32,000 nt of DNA. Origin: Pseudodesulfovibrio mercurii. Its GTDB lineage: Bacteria > Desulfobacterota > Desulfovibrionia > Desulfovibrionales > Desulfovibrionaceae. The position numbers and the translations under genes were made by a program. Below are positions 13,427 through 24,319 of this stretch, one piece after another. The notes beneath the pieces are model-generated. The model was given only the letters and a program-made list of their open reading frames with translations. It ran no database searches and had not been told where the DNA came from. Every line of letters starts with the position of its first letter. Within the stretch, counting starts at the first letter, position 1. The DNA lies in assembly GCF_000189295.2 (NCBI RefSeq), contig NC_016803.1:900001-932000 (forward strand), in the 5' to 3' direction.

Positions 13427-13503
<77 letters not shown>

Positions 13504-14697: not shown

Positions 14698-17343
14698 CTA
14701 CTTCATGGCCGCCCGGCCCAGGTGGTGCACGTCGGCCGTGACCTCCTTCAGGTGACAGACGGCGCAGTTGCCCTGGGCGCCTATGGCCCGGATGTTGCCC
14801 TGGTATTGCAGGGGCGCGATGTTGTCGCGGTTCGCGCCGTAGCGGTTCACCGCCGGGTAGTTGGCGTGCGGACTGTTGTGGCAGGCGATGCACAGCATCC
14901 TGCCCGTCTTGTCCGGACTGTTGCGGTAGAGGGTGTCCCCGCCCGTGGTCCAGGTGTTGAACCCGAGGGAAGTCTTGGCGTCCGGCTTGACATTGGGGTC
15001 CACGTGGCAGGTCCGGCAGTCCGGCTCCTGCATCCACGGCAGGCGCGGGTTGATGGCGGCCAGGTTCTCGGCGGAGCGCGGGGTCAGGTGGGCCATGAGC
15101 CGACCGGCCCGCTGCTTGCCCTGCTCCTGTTCACGCTTGAGCAGAGACAAGGCGTGGTCCTCCAGGTAGCCGTGGCAGCGCACGCAGCCGATGTCCGCCT
15201 GGGCGTGCACCCCGCGCAGGCACTTGGTCGGGCCGTCGGGCCGGTTGGGATGGCAGTAGGCGCACGCCTCGGAGCCCCGGCCGGACAGGAAGTTGGCGTG
15301 GAAGCCGTGGATGGCCGCCGGCAGGTTCAGGAGGGCGGGGTTGCCCTCGGCCCCCAGGACCGGGTCCGGATGGCAGCTCTGGCAGAGCCGGGGCTTGCCT
15401 CCCTCGGCGGACGCGGCCAGCTCGGTGTTGCTCAGGCGGTCGTGGGACCGGAGCACGTTGCGTCCGGTCGTCCGCGAGATGCCCGCCAGGTCGTCCACCT
15501 TCCACGGGCCGCCGTGGCAGTTCCGGCAGCCCATCTCCGTGGACGTGGGGGCCACGGCCCTGGTCGCGGCCAGGAGCCTGCCCGTGCCCTTTTCGCGGGC
15601 CACCACCGTGAAGACGGGATAGGGGTTGAAGCCGCCGTCCGCCGGGTACGGCTCCACCGGGATGAGCTTGGCCTCGAAGCAGTTGAGCTCGCCGTTCTCG
15701 TGCATGGGCCCGATCAGGCCGCAACCGGCCAGCCCCACATTGTCCTCTGGCCGCGCCCCGAACAGGCACTCCGCGTGTTCCCAGAACAGGGACGCCCTGG
15801 CCGGTTCCTCGAAGCCCGGCTCCACGTGGTAGGAGAGCTCCACGCCCTCGGTGACCACCTCGGGCTTGTCGCCCCGCCGGATCAGCTGGGCGAAGAGGTC
15901 GTTGGCGGGCGGCAGCAGGACCCACTCGGCATAGCTGTCCGAGATGCAGTGCATGCCCAGGTTGTTCCAGGCGAGCAGGACGTACTCGTCCTTGTCGCGG
16001 TCGAAGGGCGGAATGTCCACGGTCAGTTGCGGAGGCGTCCAGGCCCGGTTGCCGGGCTTGCCGCCGTGCAGGCCGTCCACGATGTACGCGGCCAGGGCCA
16101 GCCGCTCCTGGTCCGTGCCCGCCCACGGCGGCATGACCGGGGTGATCCGGCCCATGCCCGCGATCTTGGCGTCCATGCCGACCAGCGGATACTGCGCGGT
16201 CAGGGGCAGGATGTCGTTCATGGGGCCGCCGATGGAGTGGCAGGAGGCGCATTGCAGCTGGAAGAGCACGCGCCCGGCCTCCAGGCGGTTGGCCTCGGTG
16301 ATCGGTCCGACCCTGGCCCACCCGGCCGAGGCCAGCAGGCCGGATTCGCGCAGCCCGTCCAGGTCGGCGGTCCGGATCTGGTTGGAATACATGTACCCGT
16401 GGATGACGTAGGGCTTGCGGGCGGCCTCGCGCAGGAACTCGAAGGTGCCGATGAACCCGAAGCCGAGCAGGAGGAGGATCAGGGACAGGCTGATGCGGGC
16501 CTCCCGGCGCAGGCGCAGGATCATGACCGAGCCCAGGACGAACAGCCCGGCGGCCAGGAACGGGATCAGCCGGTAGAAGGCGGTCATGCGCGCGGCCTTG
16601 ACCGTCAGCCGCTCCAGGGCCTCGGGCGGCAGGACCGAGAAGTACCACCAGCCGAAGCCCACGGCCAGGACCACCGGCACGATGGTCCAGCGGGCGCAGC
16701 AGCGGTAGACCAGCTCCCTTGTCTCCTCGTCCTCGATGCGGTGGGCGGTGAGGAAGCCGAACAGCCCGGCGATCATCAGGGCCATGGCCGTGCGGAAGCA
16801 CAGGCCCGGCCAGAAGGACGGGTTGAAGAAGCCCGCCCAGAAGCCGCCGCCCGTAAGCCACGCCCCCGGCGTGAGCATGAAGCCGATGATCCCGTTGATC
16901 ATGAACAGGGAGAGCCAGGCGAAGACGAAGTACAGCCAGCCGATGATCAGATGGCTGCGCCGGTCCATGCGGTCGAACCGGTAATGGTAGATGAGCAGGG
17001 AGACGATCTCGGCCAGGAAGAAGACCCACTCCGTGGCCCAGGCGAAGACGAAGGTGTGGATCAGCGTGGACGTGGCCTGTGGCGCGATGACCGAGATGGT
17101 GATCCAGATGCCCACGCCGGTCATGCCGCCGAAGACCATGGTCAGGAGCAGGAAAAAGCGCGTGTGCCGCTTGACGTACTCCAACAGCGGCGCGGAGCGG
17201 AGCTTCGCGGCCAGGGTCTCGAACACGGGCAGGAACAGCCCGCCGCCCACGGCGAAGTGGGCCACGAACACGTGCACCACCGCCACCAGGGCGATGAAGA
17301 AGCCGCCGCCGAAGGTCGTCAGTTCCCAGATGGGGTATTGCAT
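14698..17343 (-). CDS. Fusion protein (881 aa): cytochrome bd subunit I (CydA)-like 8-TM domain + monohaem class-I-like cytochrome c domain + haem-free module + heptahaem c domain
   Basis: Start is ATG 17341-17343 ([14 protein letters not shown]...), overlapping the upstream stop (ATGACTAG). Residues 1-310 form about 8 TM helices with CydA-like blocks: VAHFAVGGG in TM1, [15 protein letters not shown]...RFDRM...[19 protein letters not shown]. There are eight CxxCH motifs at residues 365, 606, 664, 694, 720, 776, 818 and 860. The track ORF extension to 18105 is rejected. Confidence 0.85.
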
Positions 17344-17345
17344 GA

Positions 17346-18407
17346 CTAGCCCTCCCTGGACGGCCCGACGGCCAGGCGCAGCATGTAGCCCACGGCGATC
17401 AGCCCCAGCCCCAGGGAAACCAGGAACAGGACCAGGGGCGAGACCTCGCCCGTGACCGTCAGGTGTCGCGGCGAAAAATACGGGGCCAGCGACAGGTTGC
17501 GCAGCACGGCCCGCGCCACGACCATCAGGGAGACGGTGACCACGACCCACAGGGTCGCGCTCCTCGGCCGTCCCGCGAACCCGGCCAGCAGCAACGGAAT
17601 GGTGCTGGCCACGCCCGCCAGGAGCAGGCCCGAGGCCAGGAGGTCGCCGCCCATGAACTGAAGCAGGATACCCCGAGGCAGGGCCATGAGCCACCACAGC
17701 CCGACGGCCATCTGCACCAGGGTCGCGGAGGTGAAGACCTTCATGCCCAGCGCCCTGCCCTGCTCGGCCGCCCAAAGGGGGAGCTGGCCCGGGCGGTCCG
17801 CGACCAAGGCCGCGAACAGGCCGCCCAGGGCGACGCTGGCCAACAGGAAGTGCAGATAGCGGGGCACGGTGGTCGCCTTGAAGAAGGTCAGGATGGTCCC
17901 CTGCGGATTGGTGAAGTATTCGGTCCAGTTGAACGGCGTCTCCATGGTCGCCAGCACGCTGGTCAGCACCAGGGAGATGCACAGGACCATGCCCAGTCCG
18001 AAGACCAGGAAGACGGGTGAGCCGGGATGCTCGGCCTTCTGCCGGTGCTGGTGGATGTACAGGGCGTAGTACCCGGCGATGAGCAGGACGATGACGCTGA
18101 GCCACCAGACCGCGGACAGCACCGCGCTGGTGTAGAACAGGTGGCCGTAGAGCACCTGGAGAAAGAGCAGCGGGGCCACGCCGAAATTGACCGCCAGGGC
18201 GAAGGTCGTGGGCAGCTTGTTCGCCACGGCCCGGGCCAGCGGATCATGCCGGTCCGCCAGGGCCAGCCAGGCGGCCAGCAGCCCGCCCCCCAGCAGGATG
18301 TTGACCATGATGATGTGCGCGACGAATGTCAGGATGTTCAATCCTTCGAACCAGCCCCAGCCCACCGGAATCGCATCCGGCACGGGCATCAACGCAGTCG
18401 GATCCAT
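17346..18407 (-). CDS. Polytopic (about 9-10 TM) membrane protein of unknown function, partner of the CydA-like cytochrome
   Basis: 353 aa from ATG 18405-18407, preceded by GGAGGAGG. Its stop (17346-17348) lies 2 nt from the downstream ATG. TM1 carries LTFVAHIIMVNILLGGGLL, resembling TM1 of the fusion protein. Confidence 0.7.
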   Translation of the reverse strand: MDPTALMPVPDAIPVGWGWFEGLNILTFVAHIIMVNILLGGGLLAAWLALADRHDPLARAVANKLPTTFALAVNFGVAPLLFLQVLYGHLFYTSAVLSAVWWLSVIVLLIAGYYALYIHQHRQKAEHPGSPVFLVFGLGMVLCISLVLTSVLATMETPFNWTEYFTNPQGTILTFFKATTVPRYLHFLLASVALGGLFAALVADRPGQLPLWAAEQGRALGMKVFTSATLVQMAVGLWWLMALPRGILLQFMGGDLLASGLLLAGVASTIPLLLAGFAGRPRSATLWVVVTVSLMVVARAVLRNLSLAPYFSPRHLTVTGEVSPLVLFLVSLGLGLIAVGYMLRLAVGPSREG

Positions 18408-18736
18408 ACAACCTCCTCCGCAGGTGAACACGCCCCGCCCCCATCCCCCGCCGGTGCGCGTGCAGGTATCCGGGACATACCATGTTGCACAATCCGCTAC
18501 AACATTCGGGCCTTTATAAATACCCTTCAGCGCCGTTCCGCCGCACAGGAAACGGGAAATATGCCGCAACGTGAAATTATCGCGCCGGGGCAACCCTTTG
18601 ATTGACTGTACAATTCAATTGGTGCAATGGAGAGAATAGGAGTAAATACCGGCTGCGGGACAACACGCATCGGCAGAGGAAGGGTATACGTTCACAGACC
18701 AACCCGCAGACAACACCTTGAAACGAGGATTGTTCC

Positions 18737-20329: not shown

Positions 20330-20980
20330 CTAGAGGGCGTGGTGGAAATCGACCACGTGCTGGAGGGCGTCGCCCAGGGGGTCGAAGGTGTCGGCAAAGG
20401 AGCAGAACGACAGGTCGGTCAGGGGCGCGCAGTGCTCCGCGCCGAACAGGGCGGGCACGTATCCGGCCTCGTCGGTGTGGTGCGGGAACACCTCGGGTCC
20501 GTCGGAGAACAGCTCGAAATAGGTCAGGATGTCGGCCCCGTGGTCCGCGTGCGCGCCATGGGCCTGGTCCAGGGCCGAATGCTCGTCCGCTCCGGACGGC
20601 ACGTCGCCCTTGGAGTCCACGTGGTCGCGGAACTCCCCGCTCATGGACCGGTCCGTGAGCGGTCCGGCCGCCGTCTCCATGTTCATGGCCGCGTCGCCGA
20701 AGGCGAACAGGTAGACGTCGCCCGGCACCTCCTCGCCGCCGTGCAGCTCGAACATGGGCAACGCCCCGTCCTGGGCCATGGACAGGTAATCCTTGATGAC
20801 CACCACGCCGCCATGCTCGCCGGTCAGGACCAAGTCGTTGCCCTGGGCCGAAAACACGACCTCGGACACGTAAAAACCGAATTTGACGGGAACGTCGGGA
20901 GAAAGCGTGTACTCGGCGACTTTGCCGGGCTCGGGAAGATCCACCAGCATGGACGTGTGAGTGGGAGCGGATTCCGCCAC
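20330..20980 (-). CDS. Hypothetical acidic, His/Asp-rich protein (~216 aa) with an N-terminal GNDLVL...VVVIKDYL module
   Basis: Coding-like composition, with its own terminator. GTG at 20978-20980 is preceded by a perfect AGGAGG and a 5-nt spacer. Alternative starts are GTG 21010 (track) and ATG 20950, neither with an SD. No signal peptide is seen. Confidence 0.55.
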   Translation of the reverse strand: MAESAPTHTSMLVDLPEPGKVAEYTLSPDVPVKFGFYVSEVVFSAQGNDLVLTGEHGGVVVIKDYLSMAQDGALPMFELHGGEEVPGDVYLFAFGDAAMNMETAAGPLTDRSMSGEFRDHVDSKGDVPSGADEHSALDQAHGAHADHGADILTYFELFSDGPEVFPHHTDEAGYVPALFGAEHCAPLTDLSFCSFADTFDPLGDALQHVVDFHHAL

Positions 20981-21142
20981 GATAGCCTCCTGGGGATAAG
21001 GGGTCGGCACCGACCATGATGTGCCGTTCGCTGCACATCATTAACACAACTAAACAATACTGTCAAAAGCAGTTTAATTCCGCATGTTACCCTGTGGAAA
21101 ACTCGAAAAACACGTCCGATTGAGCACGAAAGGAGCCATTTG

Positions 21143-21991
21143 GTGAAGAAACGGTGTAACCGGTTGACGGCCAACCCCGTTTATCGGTTATATGATCTGA
21201 CCATGCGAATCTATACCATTTTCCATTTTGCGGCAAGTCTCCGCCTCCCCTGGCGGCTTCCGGCCTTCCTGGCCCTGTGGTTTCTCCTGCTGACCGTGCC
21301 GGTCCGGGCCGACGATCCCGGACAGATGATCGCGCCCTGCCTCGCCTGTCACACGGCGGAACGCATCTGCCGGAACGTGGACAGCGGCGACGCGTTCTGG
21401 ACCGACACGGTCAAGCGCATGATCGCCAAGGGAGCGCACGTGGGCCCGGATCAGGTCCCCGGCCTGGTCGCCCTCCTGGCCAACCCCGACCACGCCGAGG
21501 TCCGCAGGCTGCTGGACTGCCCGGCTCCGGGCAGCCCCGAGACGGCGGCCGCCGTCCCCACCGCCGTGATCCTGGGCCATCCCCTGCTCATGATCCTGGT
21601 CCTGCTCCTGGGGCTGTGGGTGGCCTGGCAGGGCGTGAACCGCGCCCGCTTCACCCTGCTCGGGCAAAAGGTCGCCTTCAACTGGAAGGGACACACCCGC
21701 TACGGGCTGGTGGTCATGGCCCTGTGGTTCGTCGGGGCCGTGGGCGGGTCCATCGTGACCGACATGCTCCAGGGCATCCCCGACGCCTACGAACTGCACG
21801 GGACCATGGCCAAGATCATGCTCGCGCTCATCGTCTTCGGCGCGGCCACCGGGCTGTACATGGACCGCAGAAAGGCGAAGCGCTCGATCATGCCCGTGCT
21901 GCACGGCGCGGCCAACATGCTCCTCCTGCTCCTGGCCCTGGGACAGCTCGTCACGGGCCTCGTCATCCTCGGCCGACTGTTCGCGTCCTAG
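21143..21991 (+). CDS. Signal peptide + monohaem cytochrome c domain fused to a 4-TM domain with one His per helix (DUF4079 / cytochrome b561-like)
   Basis: AAAGGAG SD (21129-21135) lies 7 nt before GTG 21143; alternatives are TTG 21140 and ATG 21203. The hydrophobic h-region ends in VRA-DD. CLACH is at 21338-21352, with a distal Met candidate in VKRMIAKGA. Four TM helices follow, each opening with a His: LGHPLLM, KGHTRYG, ELHGTMA, VLHGAAN. Confidence 0.7.
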   Translation: MKKRCNRLTANPVYRLYDLTMRIYTIFHFAASLRLPWRLPAFLALWFLLLTVPVRADDPGQMIAPCLACHTAERICRNVDSGDAFWTDTVKRMIAKGAHVGPDQVPGLVALLANPDHAEVRRLLDCPAPGSPETAAAVPTAVILGHPLLMILVLLLGLWVAWQGVNRARFTLLGQKVAFNWKGHTRYGLVVMALWFVGAVGGSIVTDMLQGIPDAYELHGTMAKIMLALIVFGAATGLYMDRRKAKRSIMPVLHGAANMLLLLLALGQLVTGLVILGRLFAS

Positions 21992-22062: not shown

Positions 22063-23133
22063 ATGACCGTATTCAACGACAACGCTGTGGGCGCGCTGGA
22101 ATTCACCGTGACCTGGGAATCGGACGGCGAGCGCCATGAGGAATGGTTTCTGGGCCGCAAGGTCAACCCGGTGAACGACATCTTCCCGACCGGTATGCGC
22201 GAGGCCCTGGAAGGCAAGGAGGCCGGGGAATCCGTGGTCTTCACCTACGAGCCGCGCCTGTGCATCCCCCGGCGCAAGGAGAGCCTGGTCCTGCGCCTGG
22301 ACCGCGACCGGCTGCGGCGCAAGACCGTGCGGGGCGAGCCGATCCTGCCGCGTGTGGGCCGGTTCTATCCCCAGGGACACATCGACGGCCTGCTGGACAT
22401 CTACCCGGACACCCTGACCCCGTTCCGGCTGGTGGACCTGGACAACGAGACCTTCACGGCGGACCGCAACCACCCCCTGGCCGACGTGCCGGTGACCATC
22501 GCGGCCAAGATCCAGTATCTGGAGGAGCGCGACACCGGGACCTACGGCTCCCTGACCCACTGGCGCGAGGCCGTCTGCGACTGGGGGCCGGGCATGCAGG
22601 CCATGCTCCACGGCGAGCCGCCGGACTTCTTTCACCCCGCCTTCTTCGACCGCTTTGCCGACCTGGACGAGGACTTCCGCCCGCCCAGGCCCGATGCGGC
22701 CGCCCTGCGCAACTACCAGTCCATCCTCGGACGGTTCGTGGAACCAGGCATGCGCCTGCTGGACCTCTCCCCGGACTCCGAGCGGCCCACCGGGCAATAC
22801 GACGGCGCGGCCTGCCTGGGCGCCCTGGAATACATGGACCGGCCTGTGGACATCCTGCGCTACGTGGCCTACTTCCTGCCGCCCGGCGCTCCGGTGGTCC
22901 TGGCCTTCTCCGAATCCTTCGACCCGGACCGGGCCATCCGGGGATGGCGGGAGCTCCTGCCCTTCGAACGCATGGGGCTGGCCCTGGAATACCTGCGCAT
23001 GGCCGGATTCACCCGGGACCTGGGGACCGTCTCCGTGCGCAACGACTGGCGCGACCGCGACGACCCCCGGTTCCTGGAGACCAAGGGCGTCAGCGACACC
23101 CTGTTCGTGGCCTACGGGCGCAAGCCGGAATAG
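22063..23133 (+). CDS. Fusion protein: SlyD/FKBP-like N-terminal domain + class-I-methyltransferase-like C-terminal domain lacking the Gly-rich SAM motif
   Basis: 356 aa from ATG 22063. The N-terminal half parallels SlyD block by block: PTGMREALEGKEAGESVVFTY vs LISGLETALEGHEVGDKFDV, and DRNHPLADVPVTIAAKIQYLEERD vs GNHMLAGQNLKFNVEVVAIREATEEE. The C-terminal half has MRLLDLSPDS where MTases carry vLDlGcGtG. The track ORF extension to 21277 overlaps the previous gene and is rejected. Confidence 0.6.
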   Translation: MTVFNDNAVGALEFTVTWESDGERHEEWFLGRKVNPVNDIFPTGMREALEGKEAGESVVFTYEPRLCIPRRKESLVLRLDRDRLRRKTVRGEPILPRVGRFYPQGHIDGLLDIYPDTLTPFRLVDLDNETFTADRNHPLADVPVTIAAKIQYLEERDTGTYGSLTHWREAVCDWGPGMQAMLHGEPPDFFHPAFFDRFADLDEDFRPPRPDAAALRNYQSILGRFVEPGMRLLDLSPDSERPTGQYDGAACLGALEYMDRPVDILRYVAYFLPPGAPVVLAFSESFDPDRAIRGWRELLPFERMGLALEYLRMAGFTRDLGTVSVRNDWRDRDDPRFLETKGVSDTLFVAYGRKPE

Positions 23134-23242
23134 GACGGAAAGCGGAAAGGACGGCGGGCCGCCATGAAACAGCGGCCCGCTGCAAGGTGGGACATGGGGA
23201 CCGCCCCGGACGCCGCCCCGTCCGGGGACGTGCGTTACGCGG

Positions 23243-24319
23243 CTATTCCCCGAGCTTGACGAGGATCTTGATGTTCTCGTCCTTGTTGTTGATCAGTTCC
23301 AGGAACCCCTTCTCCACGATGTCCTCCAGGCCGATGCGTCCGGTGATCAGGGACTCGGCCGTGAGCCGCCCGCCGGCCAGCAGGGCGGACACGCCCATGA
23401 AGTCGTCCAGGGTGTAGGCCAGGGTGCCGATGATGCGCTTGTCCGTGCCGCTCAGGCTGAAGAAGTTGAACTCGCTCGGCTCCTCGAAGATGCCCACGAT
23501 GATGGCCCGGCCCGCGTTGCGGATGAGGTCCACGGCCAGGGGGCCGGTCATCTTGTTGCCCACGCACTCGAAGGACACGTCGGCCCCGGACCCGTTGGTC
23601 ATGGCCTTGACCTCGGCCACGGGATCGCACTCGCGGGGGTTGAGGACCACGTCCGCGCCGCACTCCTTGGCCTTGGCGATGCGGGCGGCGGACATCTCCA
23701 GGACGATGACCTTGGCCGCTCCGGCGGCCCTGGCGGCCATCATGGTGCCCAGACCGATGGTCCCAGCGCCGATGACGACCACGGTCTCGCCGAGGATGGT
23801 GCCCGCCTCGCGCACGGCCTTGAAGCCCGTGGCCAGCGGCTCGATGACCGCCCCGGCCTCGGGGGAAACGCCCTCGGGCAGCACGTAGCAGAGTTCGGCC
23901 GGAACGTTGACGTACCGGGCGAAGGCCCCGTCGTTGTGCAGACCGGTGAAGGCCAGCTTCTCGCAGACGTTGTACCGTCCGGCCCGGCAGGTGACGCACT
24001 CGCCGCAGTGCTGGCAGGCGTCCGGGGCGACCATGTCGCCGACCTTGACGTTGGTCACGCCGTCGCCCAGCTCCACCACCCGGCCGGTGAACTCGTGGCC
24101 CAGGATGACGCTGCCCTGCTTGCCGGTCAGGGGATGCGGAGCGTCCACCGGGATGAAAATGGGCCCGGCCACGTATTCGTGCAGGTCCGACCCGCAGATG
24201 CCGCACCACTCGACCGCGATCTTGACCCAACCCGCCGGAGGGGACGGGGGAACGGGAACGGTCTCCACCCGCACGTCCTCTCTGGCATGCCAAACAGCGG
24301 CTCGCATTGTCTCACTCAT
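23243..24319 (-). CDS. Zn-dependent medium-chain alcohol dehydrogenase (2,3-butanediol / acetoin reductase-like)
   Basis: Catalytic-Zn signature GHEFTGRVVELGDGV with CGICGSDLH, structural-Zn cysteines CQHCGECVTCRAGRYNVC, and NAD fold VIGAGTIGLG. GGAGG SD lies 7 nt before the ATG at 24319. Confidence 0.9.
   Translation of the reverse strand: MSETMRAAVWHAREDVRVETVPVPPSPPAGWVKIAVEWCGICGSDLHEYVAGPIFIPVDAPHPLTGKQGSVILGHEFTGRVVELGDGVTNVKVGDMVAPDACQHCGECVTCRAGRYNVCEKLAFTGLHNDGAFARYVNVPAELCYVLPEGVSPEAGAVIEPLATGFKAVREAGTILGETVVVIGAGTIGLGTMMAARAAGAAKVIVLEMSAARIAKAKECGADVVLNPRECDPVAEVKAMTNGSGADVSFECVGNKMTGPLAVDLIRNAGRAIIVGIFEEPSEFNFFSLSGTDKRIIGTLAYTLDDFMGVSALLAGGRLTAESLITGRIGLEDIVEKGFLELINNKDENIKILVKLGE

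Follow-up and report, generated by a model that had tools for sequence, protein, structure and literature searches.

Within the cytochrome bd superfamily, OR-C is one of three families and the sole one predicted to use cytochrome c. The OR-C1a and OR-C1b families were defined by Murali, Gennis and Hemp (ISME J 2021; bioRxiv 10.1101/2021.01.16.426971). In their description, OR-C1a as a rule possesses eight helices and a lengthened C-terminus in the periplasm, is accompanied by an adjacent paralogue, OR-C1b, and has cytochrome c as its proposed electron donor. The stretch of DNA analyzed here (the window) comprises 32,000 nt of Pseudodesulfovibrio mercurii, namely positions 900,001-932,000 of NC_016803.1 (GCF_000189295.2), and coordinates below are positions in this window unless another locus is named. 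It contains, on the minus strand, a gene for an 881-aa protein combining a CydA-like subunit I with eight c-type haems (14698..17343) and, directly upstream, a gene for a 353-aa partner of CydA/CydB fold with nine transmembrane (TM) helices and no haem c (17346..18407). Together they are an OR-C1a/OR-C1b pair, a bioinformatic class already listed down to the locus tag. We slightly favor the prediction from sequence that the operon encodes a quinone-independent periplasmic-cytochrome-c:O2 oxidoreductase of the cytochrome bd superfamily.

The partner protein and DND132_0857 of strain ND132 (formerly named Desulfovibrio desulfuricans ND132) share 100% identity, and by inference the larger gene is DND132_0856. 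The latter tag is named for this strain in Table S7 of Murali et al. (2021) with 8 haems, next to a second 8-haem OR-C1a copy, DND132_2492, located outside the window. The same table files the haem-free 'hypothetical proteins' beside OR-C1a genes as OR-C1b. What characterizes OR-C1a was found here throughout: CydA homology (called for at least in the first four helices, with the O2-reducing haems), absence of the Q-loop and b558 ligands, periplasmic CxxCH motifs at the C-terminus, 8 TM helices, equivalents of H19, E99 and E107, and an adjacent paralogue. An earlier sequence-only reading of the window had stated that surveys of the bd superfamily mention CydA homologues fused to haem c and that no biochemical work on them is known. 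The first statement is correct, the survey being that of Murali et al. (2021), which names OR-C1a and lists DND132_0856. Searches of the available papers up to 2026 by family name and locus tags found no OR-C enzyme studied by biochemistry, genetics or structure determination, and later papers, including a 2026 cryo-electron microscopy paper on bd-I, mention OR-C merely as a phylogenetic class. The novelty of the module had been overstated: the family has been named and its function predicted (cytochrome-c-dependent O2 reductase), though no experiment on an orthologue is known. In NCBI, relatives of OR-C1a are named 'cytochrome ubiquinol oxidase subunit I', a misleading label for a protein that has no quinol site.

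The membrane domain of OR-C1a, residues 1-310 with 8 TM helices (16414..17343, minus strand), was delimited using HMMER, hhalign, residue conservation, Foldseek and an AlphaFold2 (AF2) model. Residues 17-195 matched PF01654 (cytochrome bd subunit I) with E 1.9e-7 and 30.5 bits, exceeding the cut-off (26.2). For the search of PDB sequences, a family profile was built from 32 homologues, and HMMER retrieved Geobacillus CydA (5doq_A) with E 4e-6. In the comparison of the AF2 model (mean predicted local distance difference test (pLDDT) 91.3, predicted template modelling score 0.88) with the PDB using Foldseek, CydA of every solved bd oxidase ranked on top (probability 1.0, E 3e-8 to 8e-6, target template modelling score (TM-score) 0.52-0.70) and CydB chains came second. 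Eight TM helices were obtained both from hydropathy and from the model. Successive loops contain 5/0/4/0/4/3/4 Lys plus Arg residues, which following the positive-inside rule corresponds to an N-out/C-out topology, and the haem-c region is therefore assigned to the periplasm. Maturation of haem c needs a periplasmic location. TM6 and TM7 are linked by a short helix of about 14-17 residues, compared with the 60-140-residue Q-loop of quinol oxidases; therefore, no Q-loop is present. A CydA-like N-terminal domain with about 8 helices, without Q-loop and with its C-terminus in the periplasm, as proposed from the letters alone, is supported by these analyses.

HMMER alignment placed H24 of OR-C1a at the TM1 haem ligand (Geobacillus His21, E. 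coli His19) and placed E105 (E101 and E99, respectively), E112 (E108 and E107) and H131 (His128 and His126) at residues of the proton channel. The spacing between E105 and E112 is six residues, as in qOR2-4. Read by eye, the TM1 His had been assigned to VAHFAVGGG (H29); the equivalent of His19 is the invariant H24 (VVHVFV), five residues away from that register. The replacement of the b558 ligand His186 by Arg had been called correctly, with R184 aligned at His186 of both Geobacillus and E. coli CydA, whereas Murali et al. (2021) give F183 at this position. For the other b558 ligand, M393, the OR-C1a family alignment shows no conserved Met where TM7 begins. In the region of TM8, hhalign matched OR-C1a to CydA AGWYLAEVGRQPWILRGYMK with E 4e-4 and 35% identity over 20 residues, and alignment with Geobacillus WYLAEVGRQPWILRGYMK equates E306 with E378/E445. 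Residues E302, R305, E306, R309 and P311 correspond to the E445-GRQPW motif of CydA and take the form E-x-x-R-x-P-(Y/W). The residues given for OR-C1a in Table S6 of Murali et al. (2021) (H24, E105, E112, S145, H131, Y119, Y121, V77 and W80), carry numbers identical to those of the 881-aa protein; the E445 position is scored '-' there, whereas the conserved E306 was found here.

Invariance of OR-C1a columns was judged over 121 full-length homologues. H24, E105, E112, H131, S145, R184, E302, R305, E306, R309 and P311 were invariant, and the active-site and channel residues were at least 90% conserved among distant 1-haem relatives. The di-haem/proton-channel half of a bd oxidase is therefore retained. 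On these alignments, OR-C1a corresponds to a CydA cut short behind TM8, and the quinol/b558 half has been lost.

In the periplasmic extension, CxxCH occurs eight times (first residues 365, 606, 654, 694, 720, 776, 818 and 860), and all eight motifs are invariant. The first belongs to a class-I monohaem cytochrome c domain of about residues 345-430 (16054..16311, minus strand; C365-x-x-C368-H369, axial Met404), delimited using Pfam and PDB profile matches. Residues 353-421 matched the Pfam family Cytochrome_CBB3 (CcoP-type class I) with E 6.6e-6 and 26.8 bits, 0.2 below the cut-off of 27. Against PDB, cytochrome c6 was matched with E 1e-4, and the invariant M404 (VMPPW) aligned with the axial Met in the MPAF motif of c6. 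The class-I-like character of the domain around CASCH at 365 and the Met of PVMPPW as its ligand had both been suggested previously, as had the two regions that follow: a haem-free module of about 170 residues and seven more CxxCH motifs. The former corresponds to residues 431-600 (15544..16053, minus strand), delimited using the AF2 model and invariant columns, and consists of nine beta strands with pLDDT >90 and no CxxCH. Its conserved motif reads W459-N-N-L-G-M464-H-C...D469...P478-P-A-N, in which H465 and C466 of the GMHC part fall short of strict invariance. When searched alone, this beta module matched no Pfam family even at E<=10, and no significant sequence or fold match was obtained in PDB. 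The heptahaem c domain, residues 601-881 (14698..15543, minus strand), was delimited using motif positions, Pfam and conservation, and contains additional conserved His residues at 634, 679, 682, 713, 730, 826, 873 and 874. The C-terminal 280 residues matched Pfam Cytochrome_C7 (43 bits), a c3-type family (c3_2) and MtrC/MtrF domain II/IV (42.6 bits, cut-off 30). With the full OR-C1a model, Foldseek against PDB gave no significant match for residues 430-881.

For OR-C1b, no match was obtained in Pfam or NCBIfam, and its profile gave no bd match among PDB sequences. BLASTP detected no similarity between it and the membrane domain of OR-C1a; the relation becomes visible only in profile-profile and fold comparison. 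Using hhalign, OR-C1b was aligned with the OR-C1a membrane domain over 271 columns (94.5% probability, E 7.4e-8). The AF2 model (pLDDT 89.9) has nine TM helices, one more than the eight given by Murali et al. (2021), and Foldseek matched it to CydB/CydA chains with probability 1.0 (TM-score 0.67/0.71 to 5doq_B and 9r2g_D). On the profile alignment and the predicted fold, OR-C1b is a 9-TM CydA/CydB-fold paralogue occupying the position of CydB.

Equivalents of E99, E107 and E445 are missing from OR-C1b. Its invariant residues are H31, which aligns with OR-C1a H24 and His19, N36, Q84, R183, H186, M295 in TM8, R299 and R303. As read from alignments, H186 follows a (D/N)P motif by nine residues, a spacing identical to that of His186, the b558 ligand, in CydA of Geobacillus and E. 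coli, and a basic residue precedes the His186-type site by three positions in all three proteins. Partners of about 370 aa from 1- and 2-haem operons of unrelated metagenomes matched the OR-C1b profile with E 1e-73 to 1e-89 and kept the same residues; H31, H186 and M295 are conserved from 8-haem Desulfovibrionaceae to 1-haem operons of Acidobacteria and Omnitrophota. These conserved His, His and Met residues, brought out here, receive no mention in the accessible parts of Murali et al. (2021). It is possible, but in our view doubtful, that OR-C1b carries b-type haem(s) of its own, such that the low-spin haem missing from OR-C1a would have been relocated to the paralogue, together with further cofactors. 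If OR-C1b binds haem, the OR-C1 complex would be a pseudo-symmetric array of >10 haems, and its chemistry could depart from that of a simple cytochrome c oxidase, be it by an additional route for electrons, by a link to quinone or by another substrate.

Both genes are arranged compactly. The 881-aa OR-C1a product begins with MQYPIW at the ATG at 17343, as determined from the open reading frame (ORF) and its translation; a longer frame with a GTG start back to 18105 would overlap the OR-C1b gene. The ATG lies 2 nt after the TAG stop of OR-C1b and is preceded at 6 nt by a ribosome-binding site, GGGAGGG (17350..17356, minus strand), within the 3' end of OR-C1b. The 2-nt spacing suggests translational coupling. 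OR-C1b has a ribosome-binding site of its own, GGAGGAGG (18412..18419, minus strand), 4 nt 5' of its ATG (18407); both sites were read from the sequence. A terminator scan located an intrinsic terminator 22 nt past the OR-C1a stop (minus strand, from 14676 to 14647 or, in wider bounds, to 14637), with a 13-bp stem (8 GC pairs) followed by a T-run. This terminator closes the OR-C1b-OR-C1a unit at its 3' side, which is therefore considered a two-gene operon. A sigma-70 promoter scan upstream of the operon gave no match, and no small ORF of the CydX/S type was seen in the ORF list or the upstream sequence.

Database searches returned more than 3,230 relatives of OR-C1a, the best 120 of which are all about 870-900 aa long and 52-87% identical over their full length. 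In a word-indexed search, the exact ND132 OR-C1a protein was not among the top matches, the best of which was 87% identical. Loci were scanned in one genome per GTDB species, yielding at least 595 loci with OR-C1a relatives. The best 80 of these all encode the 8-haem form and include Desulfovibrionales, Desulfobacterales, Desulfobulbales, Desulfuromonadales/Geobacteraceae, Bacteroidales/Prolixibacteraceae/Draconibacterium, Ignavibacteria/Melioribacteraceae/Kapabacteria, Calditrichia, Krumholzibacteriia, Eisenbacteria, Gemmatimonadales and others. Synteny and motif counts were determined for 83 loci of the 8-haem type. Every homologue contained 8 CxxCH motifs (nine were counted in one ORF with an extended start), and OR-C1b was encoded directly upstream of OR-C1a in 79 of the 83 loci, upstream sequence being missing in 3 of the remaining 4. 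Clustering of flanking ORFs, with three genome contexts viewed, showed that the most frequent flanking family apart from OR-C1b occurs in at most 7 loci. The pairing of OR-C1a with OR-C1b is obligate, and the description of the module as an orphan fits this survey, OR-C1b being its only syntenic companion.

Residues 1-430 were also searched exhaustively against representatives at 50% identity, resulting in 1,069 clusters. C-termini among these carry 1, 2, 3 or 8 haems, one haem being the commonest. The constant hallmark of the family is thus the monohaem domain after TM8, and the beta module and heptahaem domain are an add-on. Five operons with 1 or 2 haems were inspected; their partner gene lies downstream rather than upstream, and no other neighbor is conserved. 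Relatives with 1 haem were found in microaerophiles and aerobes such as Hydrogenobacter, Thermocrinis, Sulfurospirillum, Chitinophaga, Myroides and Lysinibacillus; the homologue search for 1-haem forms returned none from Desulfovibrio. AhpC/Redoxin, OsmC, FMN reductase and DsrE-like genes are located up to 4.5 kb upstream of 1- and 2-haem operons, on the opposite strand, in one Omnitrophota genome and one other metagenomic genome (loci L085, 1535-3433, and L086, 5411-5872). These peroxiredoxin-type neighbors lend weak circumstantial support to an oxidative-stress context. On a further metagenomic contig (L084, 6001-12600), a 1-haem OR-C1a/OR-C1b pair is followed by NuoF-like and molybdopterin FdhA-like genes with overlapping stop and start codons; from their sequence, these look like an NAD-type formate dehydrogenase, in a single case.

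For the cytochrome c:O2 oxidoreductase, the following scheme is proposed. Reduced periplasmic cytochromes would dock on the heptahaem domain; in a sulfate reducer, these would belong to the type I c3 pool, which receives electrons from hydrogenases and formate dehydrogenases. Electrons would then travel along the haem-c wire to the His/Met monohaem domain, on the periplasmic side at the place taken by the Q-loop and b558 in canonical enzymes, and from this haem to the di-haem site (TM1-4/TM8), where two high-spin haems would be held by H24, E105 and E306. At this site O2 would be reduced to water with cytoplasmic protons supplied via an E112/E105/S145/H131 channel. The net effect would be removal of O2 and generation of a membrane potential by charge separation, with no quinones involved. 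Entry of electrons through haem c rather than at a quinol site, as also put forward in the sequence-only reading, is supported by the architecture and the loss of the Q-loop and b558 ligands. Reduction of O2 is favored because the residues conserved are those of the proton channel and active site, and because 1-haem relatives occur in microaerophiles and aerobes.

Several points weigh against this scheme. No OR-C member is known to have been purified or assayed, and O2 reduction is extrapolated from conserved residues. The OR-C family is not known to need synthesis or insertion of haem d. The conserved H31, H186 and M295 of OR-C1b hint at extra cofactors outside the scheme, and the strongly conserved beta module has no assigned role. 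Finally, the window contains no informative neighbors and no recognizable site for an O2-responsive regulator, the 330-bp region upstream not having been scanned for motifs.

Three other functions were considered. The complex might act as a periplasmic-cytochrome:menaquinone oxidoreductase, or in the reverse direction, as an alternative to Qrc, with b-type haems and a quinone site provided by OR-C1b or the subunit interface. In Desulfobacterota, membrane complexes with multihaem cytochromes c such as Qrc, Hmc and Tmc usually join the c3 pool to menaquinone, and a structural quinone is bound by canonical CydB in E. coli bd-I structures. OR-C1b offers the invariant H31, R183-x-x-H186 and M295, with H186 spaced from the NP/DP motif like a b558 ligand. 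However, the Q-loop and b558 ligands are absent from OR-C1a, and the aerobes harboring 1-haem relatives already own quinol oxidoreductases of the bc1/ACIII type. Moreover, the conserved E105, E112, S145, H131, H24 and E306 serve O2 and proton chemistry and not quinol oxidation, going by Table S6 of Murali et al. (2021). We consider a menaquinone link unlikely. About as improbable is a detoxifying reductase acting on NO, nitrite, H2O2 or peroxynitrite at the di-haem site or a haem c, with O2 as a side substrate. Peroxidase- or catalase-like and NO-related activities are documented for canonical bd oxidases, peroxiredoxin-type genes occur near some 1- and 2-haem operons, and the conserved beta module with its G-M-H-C could form a substrate or metal site. 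Against this, the eight conserved spare His residues for the seven distal haems, together with Met404, would allow all c haems to be six-coordinate, so that none is obviously catalytic; H465 and C466 are not strictly invariant; and the window contains no adjacent genes of a nitrogen-oxide or peroxide regulon.

Less probable still is that the pair does not oxidize the cytochrome pool in general but is a membrane subunit reserved for one periplasmic dehydrogenase, for instance formate dehydrogenase (FDH), with which it would make up a chain from formate to O2 or another acceptor. An O2-insensitive FDH is the product of fdh2 in D. vulgaris (bioRxiv 10.1101/2022.01.18.476765); this operon of five genes, DVU2485-2481, also holds two 'cytochrome c' genes, DVU2483 and DVU2484 (PMC10920352), and the metagenomic 1-haem operon described above runs on into NuoF-like and FdhA-like genes. 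Taken together, the two cases hint at formate-linked OR-C variants. DVU2484/2485 are probably a 1-haem OR-C1a/b pair, to judge from the listing of Dvul_0759 and its neighbor in Murali et al. (2021). An FDH lies beside the pair in none of the 83 8-haem loci and is absent from 4 of the 5 1- or 2-haem contexts inspected, nor is any dehydrogenase encoded nearby in the window.

If the complex is a true oxidase, many 'strict' anaerobes would have a quinone-independent route from periplasmic hydrogenases, formate dehydrogenases and the cytochrome c3 pool to O2, with consequences for how sulfate reducers, and the mercury methylator ND132, tolerate O2. OR-C1 is a widespread and probably important enzyme.

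The genes flanking the operon are unrelated to it. On one side these encode glycosyltransferases, a PAP2 protein, a VTT/DedA protein, an aldo-keto reductase and tRNA-Met; on the other side, a DASS transporter gene is transcribed divergently. The tRNA-Met gene (CAT; 13427-13503, plus strand) has the glycosyltransferase cluster on one flank and the aldo-keto reductase gene on the other. At 2.7 kb from the operon, a gene at 21140-21991 (plus strand) encodes 283 aa that begin with a hydrophobic segment, contain one haem-c motif (CLACH) and end in DUF4079 (Pfam E 3.8e-8), a four-helix membrane domain; judged by its sequence, the product resembles a fusion of a membrane-anchored monohaem cytochrome c with DUF4079. 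The ORFs at 20330-21010 (minus strand; 226 aa, very acidic) and 22143-23417 (plus strand; 424 aa) matched no Pfam family at E<=0.001.

Compared with canonical CydAB (qOR1-3; E. coli bd-I 6RKO/6RX4, Geobacillus 5DOQ and M. smegmatis 9R2G), OR-C1 shares the fold of subunit I, the TM1 His, two TM3 Glu, TM4 His/Ser and the TM8 Glu-x-x-Arg-x-Pro motif of OR-C1a, and the organization as a heterodimer with a pseudo-symmetric partner. In contrast to the canonical enzymes, OR-C1a lacks the Q-loop and the b558 His and Met that mark a quinol oxidase, and in place of TM9 it has an octahaem extension of 570 residues in the periplasm. The donor is presumably cytochrome c instead of quinol. OR-C1b is a distinct paralogue, CydB-like in fold only and without a PF02322 match, and no CydX/S ORF accompanies the pair. 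Archaeal CydAA' (qOR4a/4b) resembles OR-C1 in that its second subunit is a diverged CydA paralogue without quinol site and proton-channel glutamates, as described by Murali et al. (2021); unlike OR-C1, CydAA' has no haem c and oxidizes quinol at the Q-site of qOR4a.

A class-I haem c domain tethered as electron entry is also found in subunit II of caa3 and in CcoP of cbb3 haem-copper oxidases. This is an analogy only, the catalytic subunit of OR-C1 being unrelated and having no copper site. With Qrc, Hmc, Tmc, Nhc and Ohc, and with MtrC/OmcA, OR-C1 shares a periplasmic multihaem c 'antenna', which is probably a partner of type I cytochrome c3. It differs from the former complexes, outside of which it had been placed from the start, in having a CydA-like anchor instead of an NrfD/NarI/HdrE-like one, no iron-sulfur subunits and only two genes, both of CydA fold; no NrfD or NarI subunit was found. 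Unlike MtrC/OmcA, OR-C1a is an inner-membrane fusion and not an outer-membrane lipoprotein. PF22113 (MtrC/MtrF II-IV) matched residues 692-873 with 41-43 bits against a cut-off of 30, whereas the scores for TIGR03507/03508 were far under the cut-off and no MtrC fold was among the PDB matches. Between the beta module and MtrC domains I/III, no relation was detected.

From the OR-C1 class of Murali et al. (2021), the operon shows no difference in kind. Added here are the beta module without a match in Pfam or PDB, E306 of OR-C1a, and the nine helices of OR-C1b with its conserved H31, H186 and M295.

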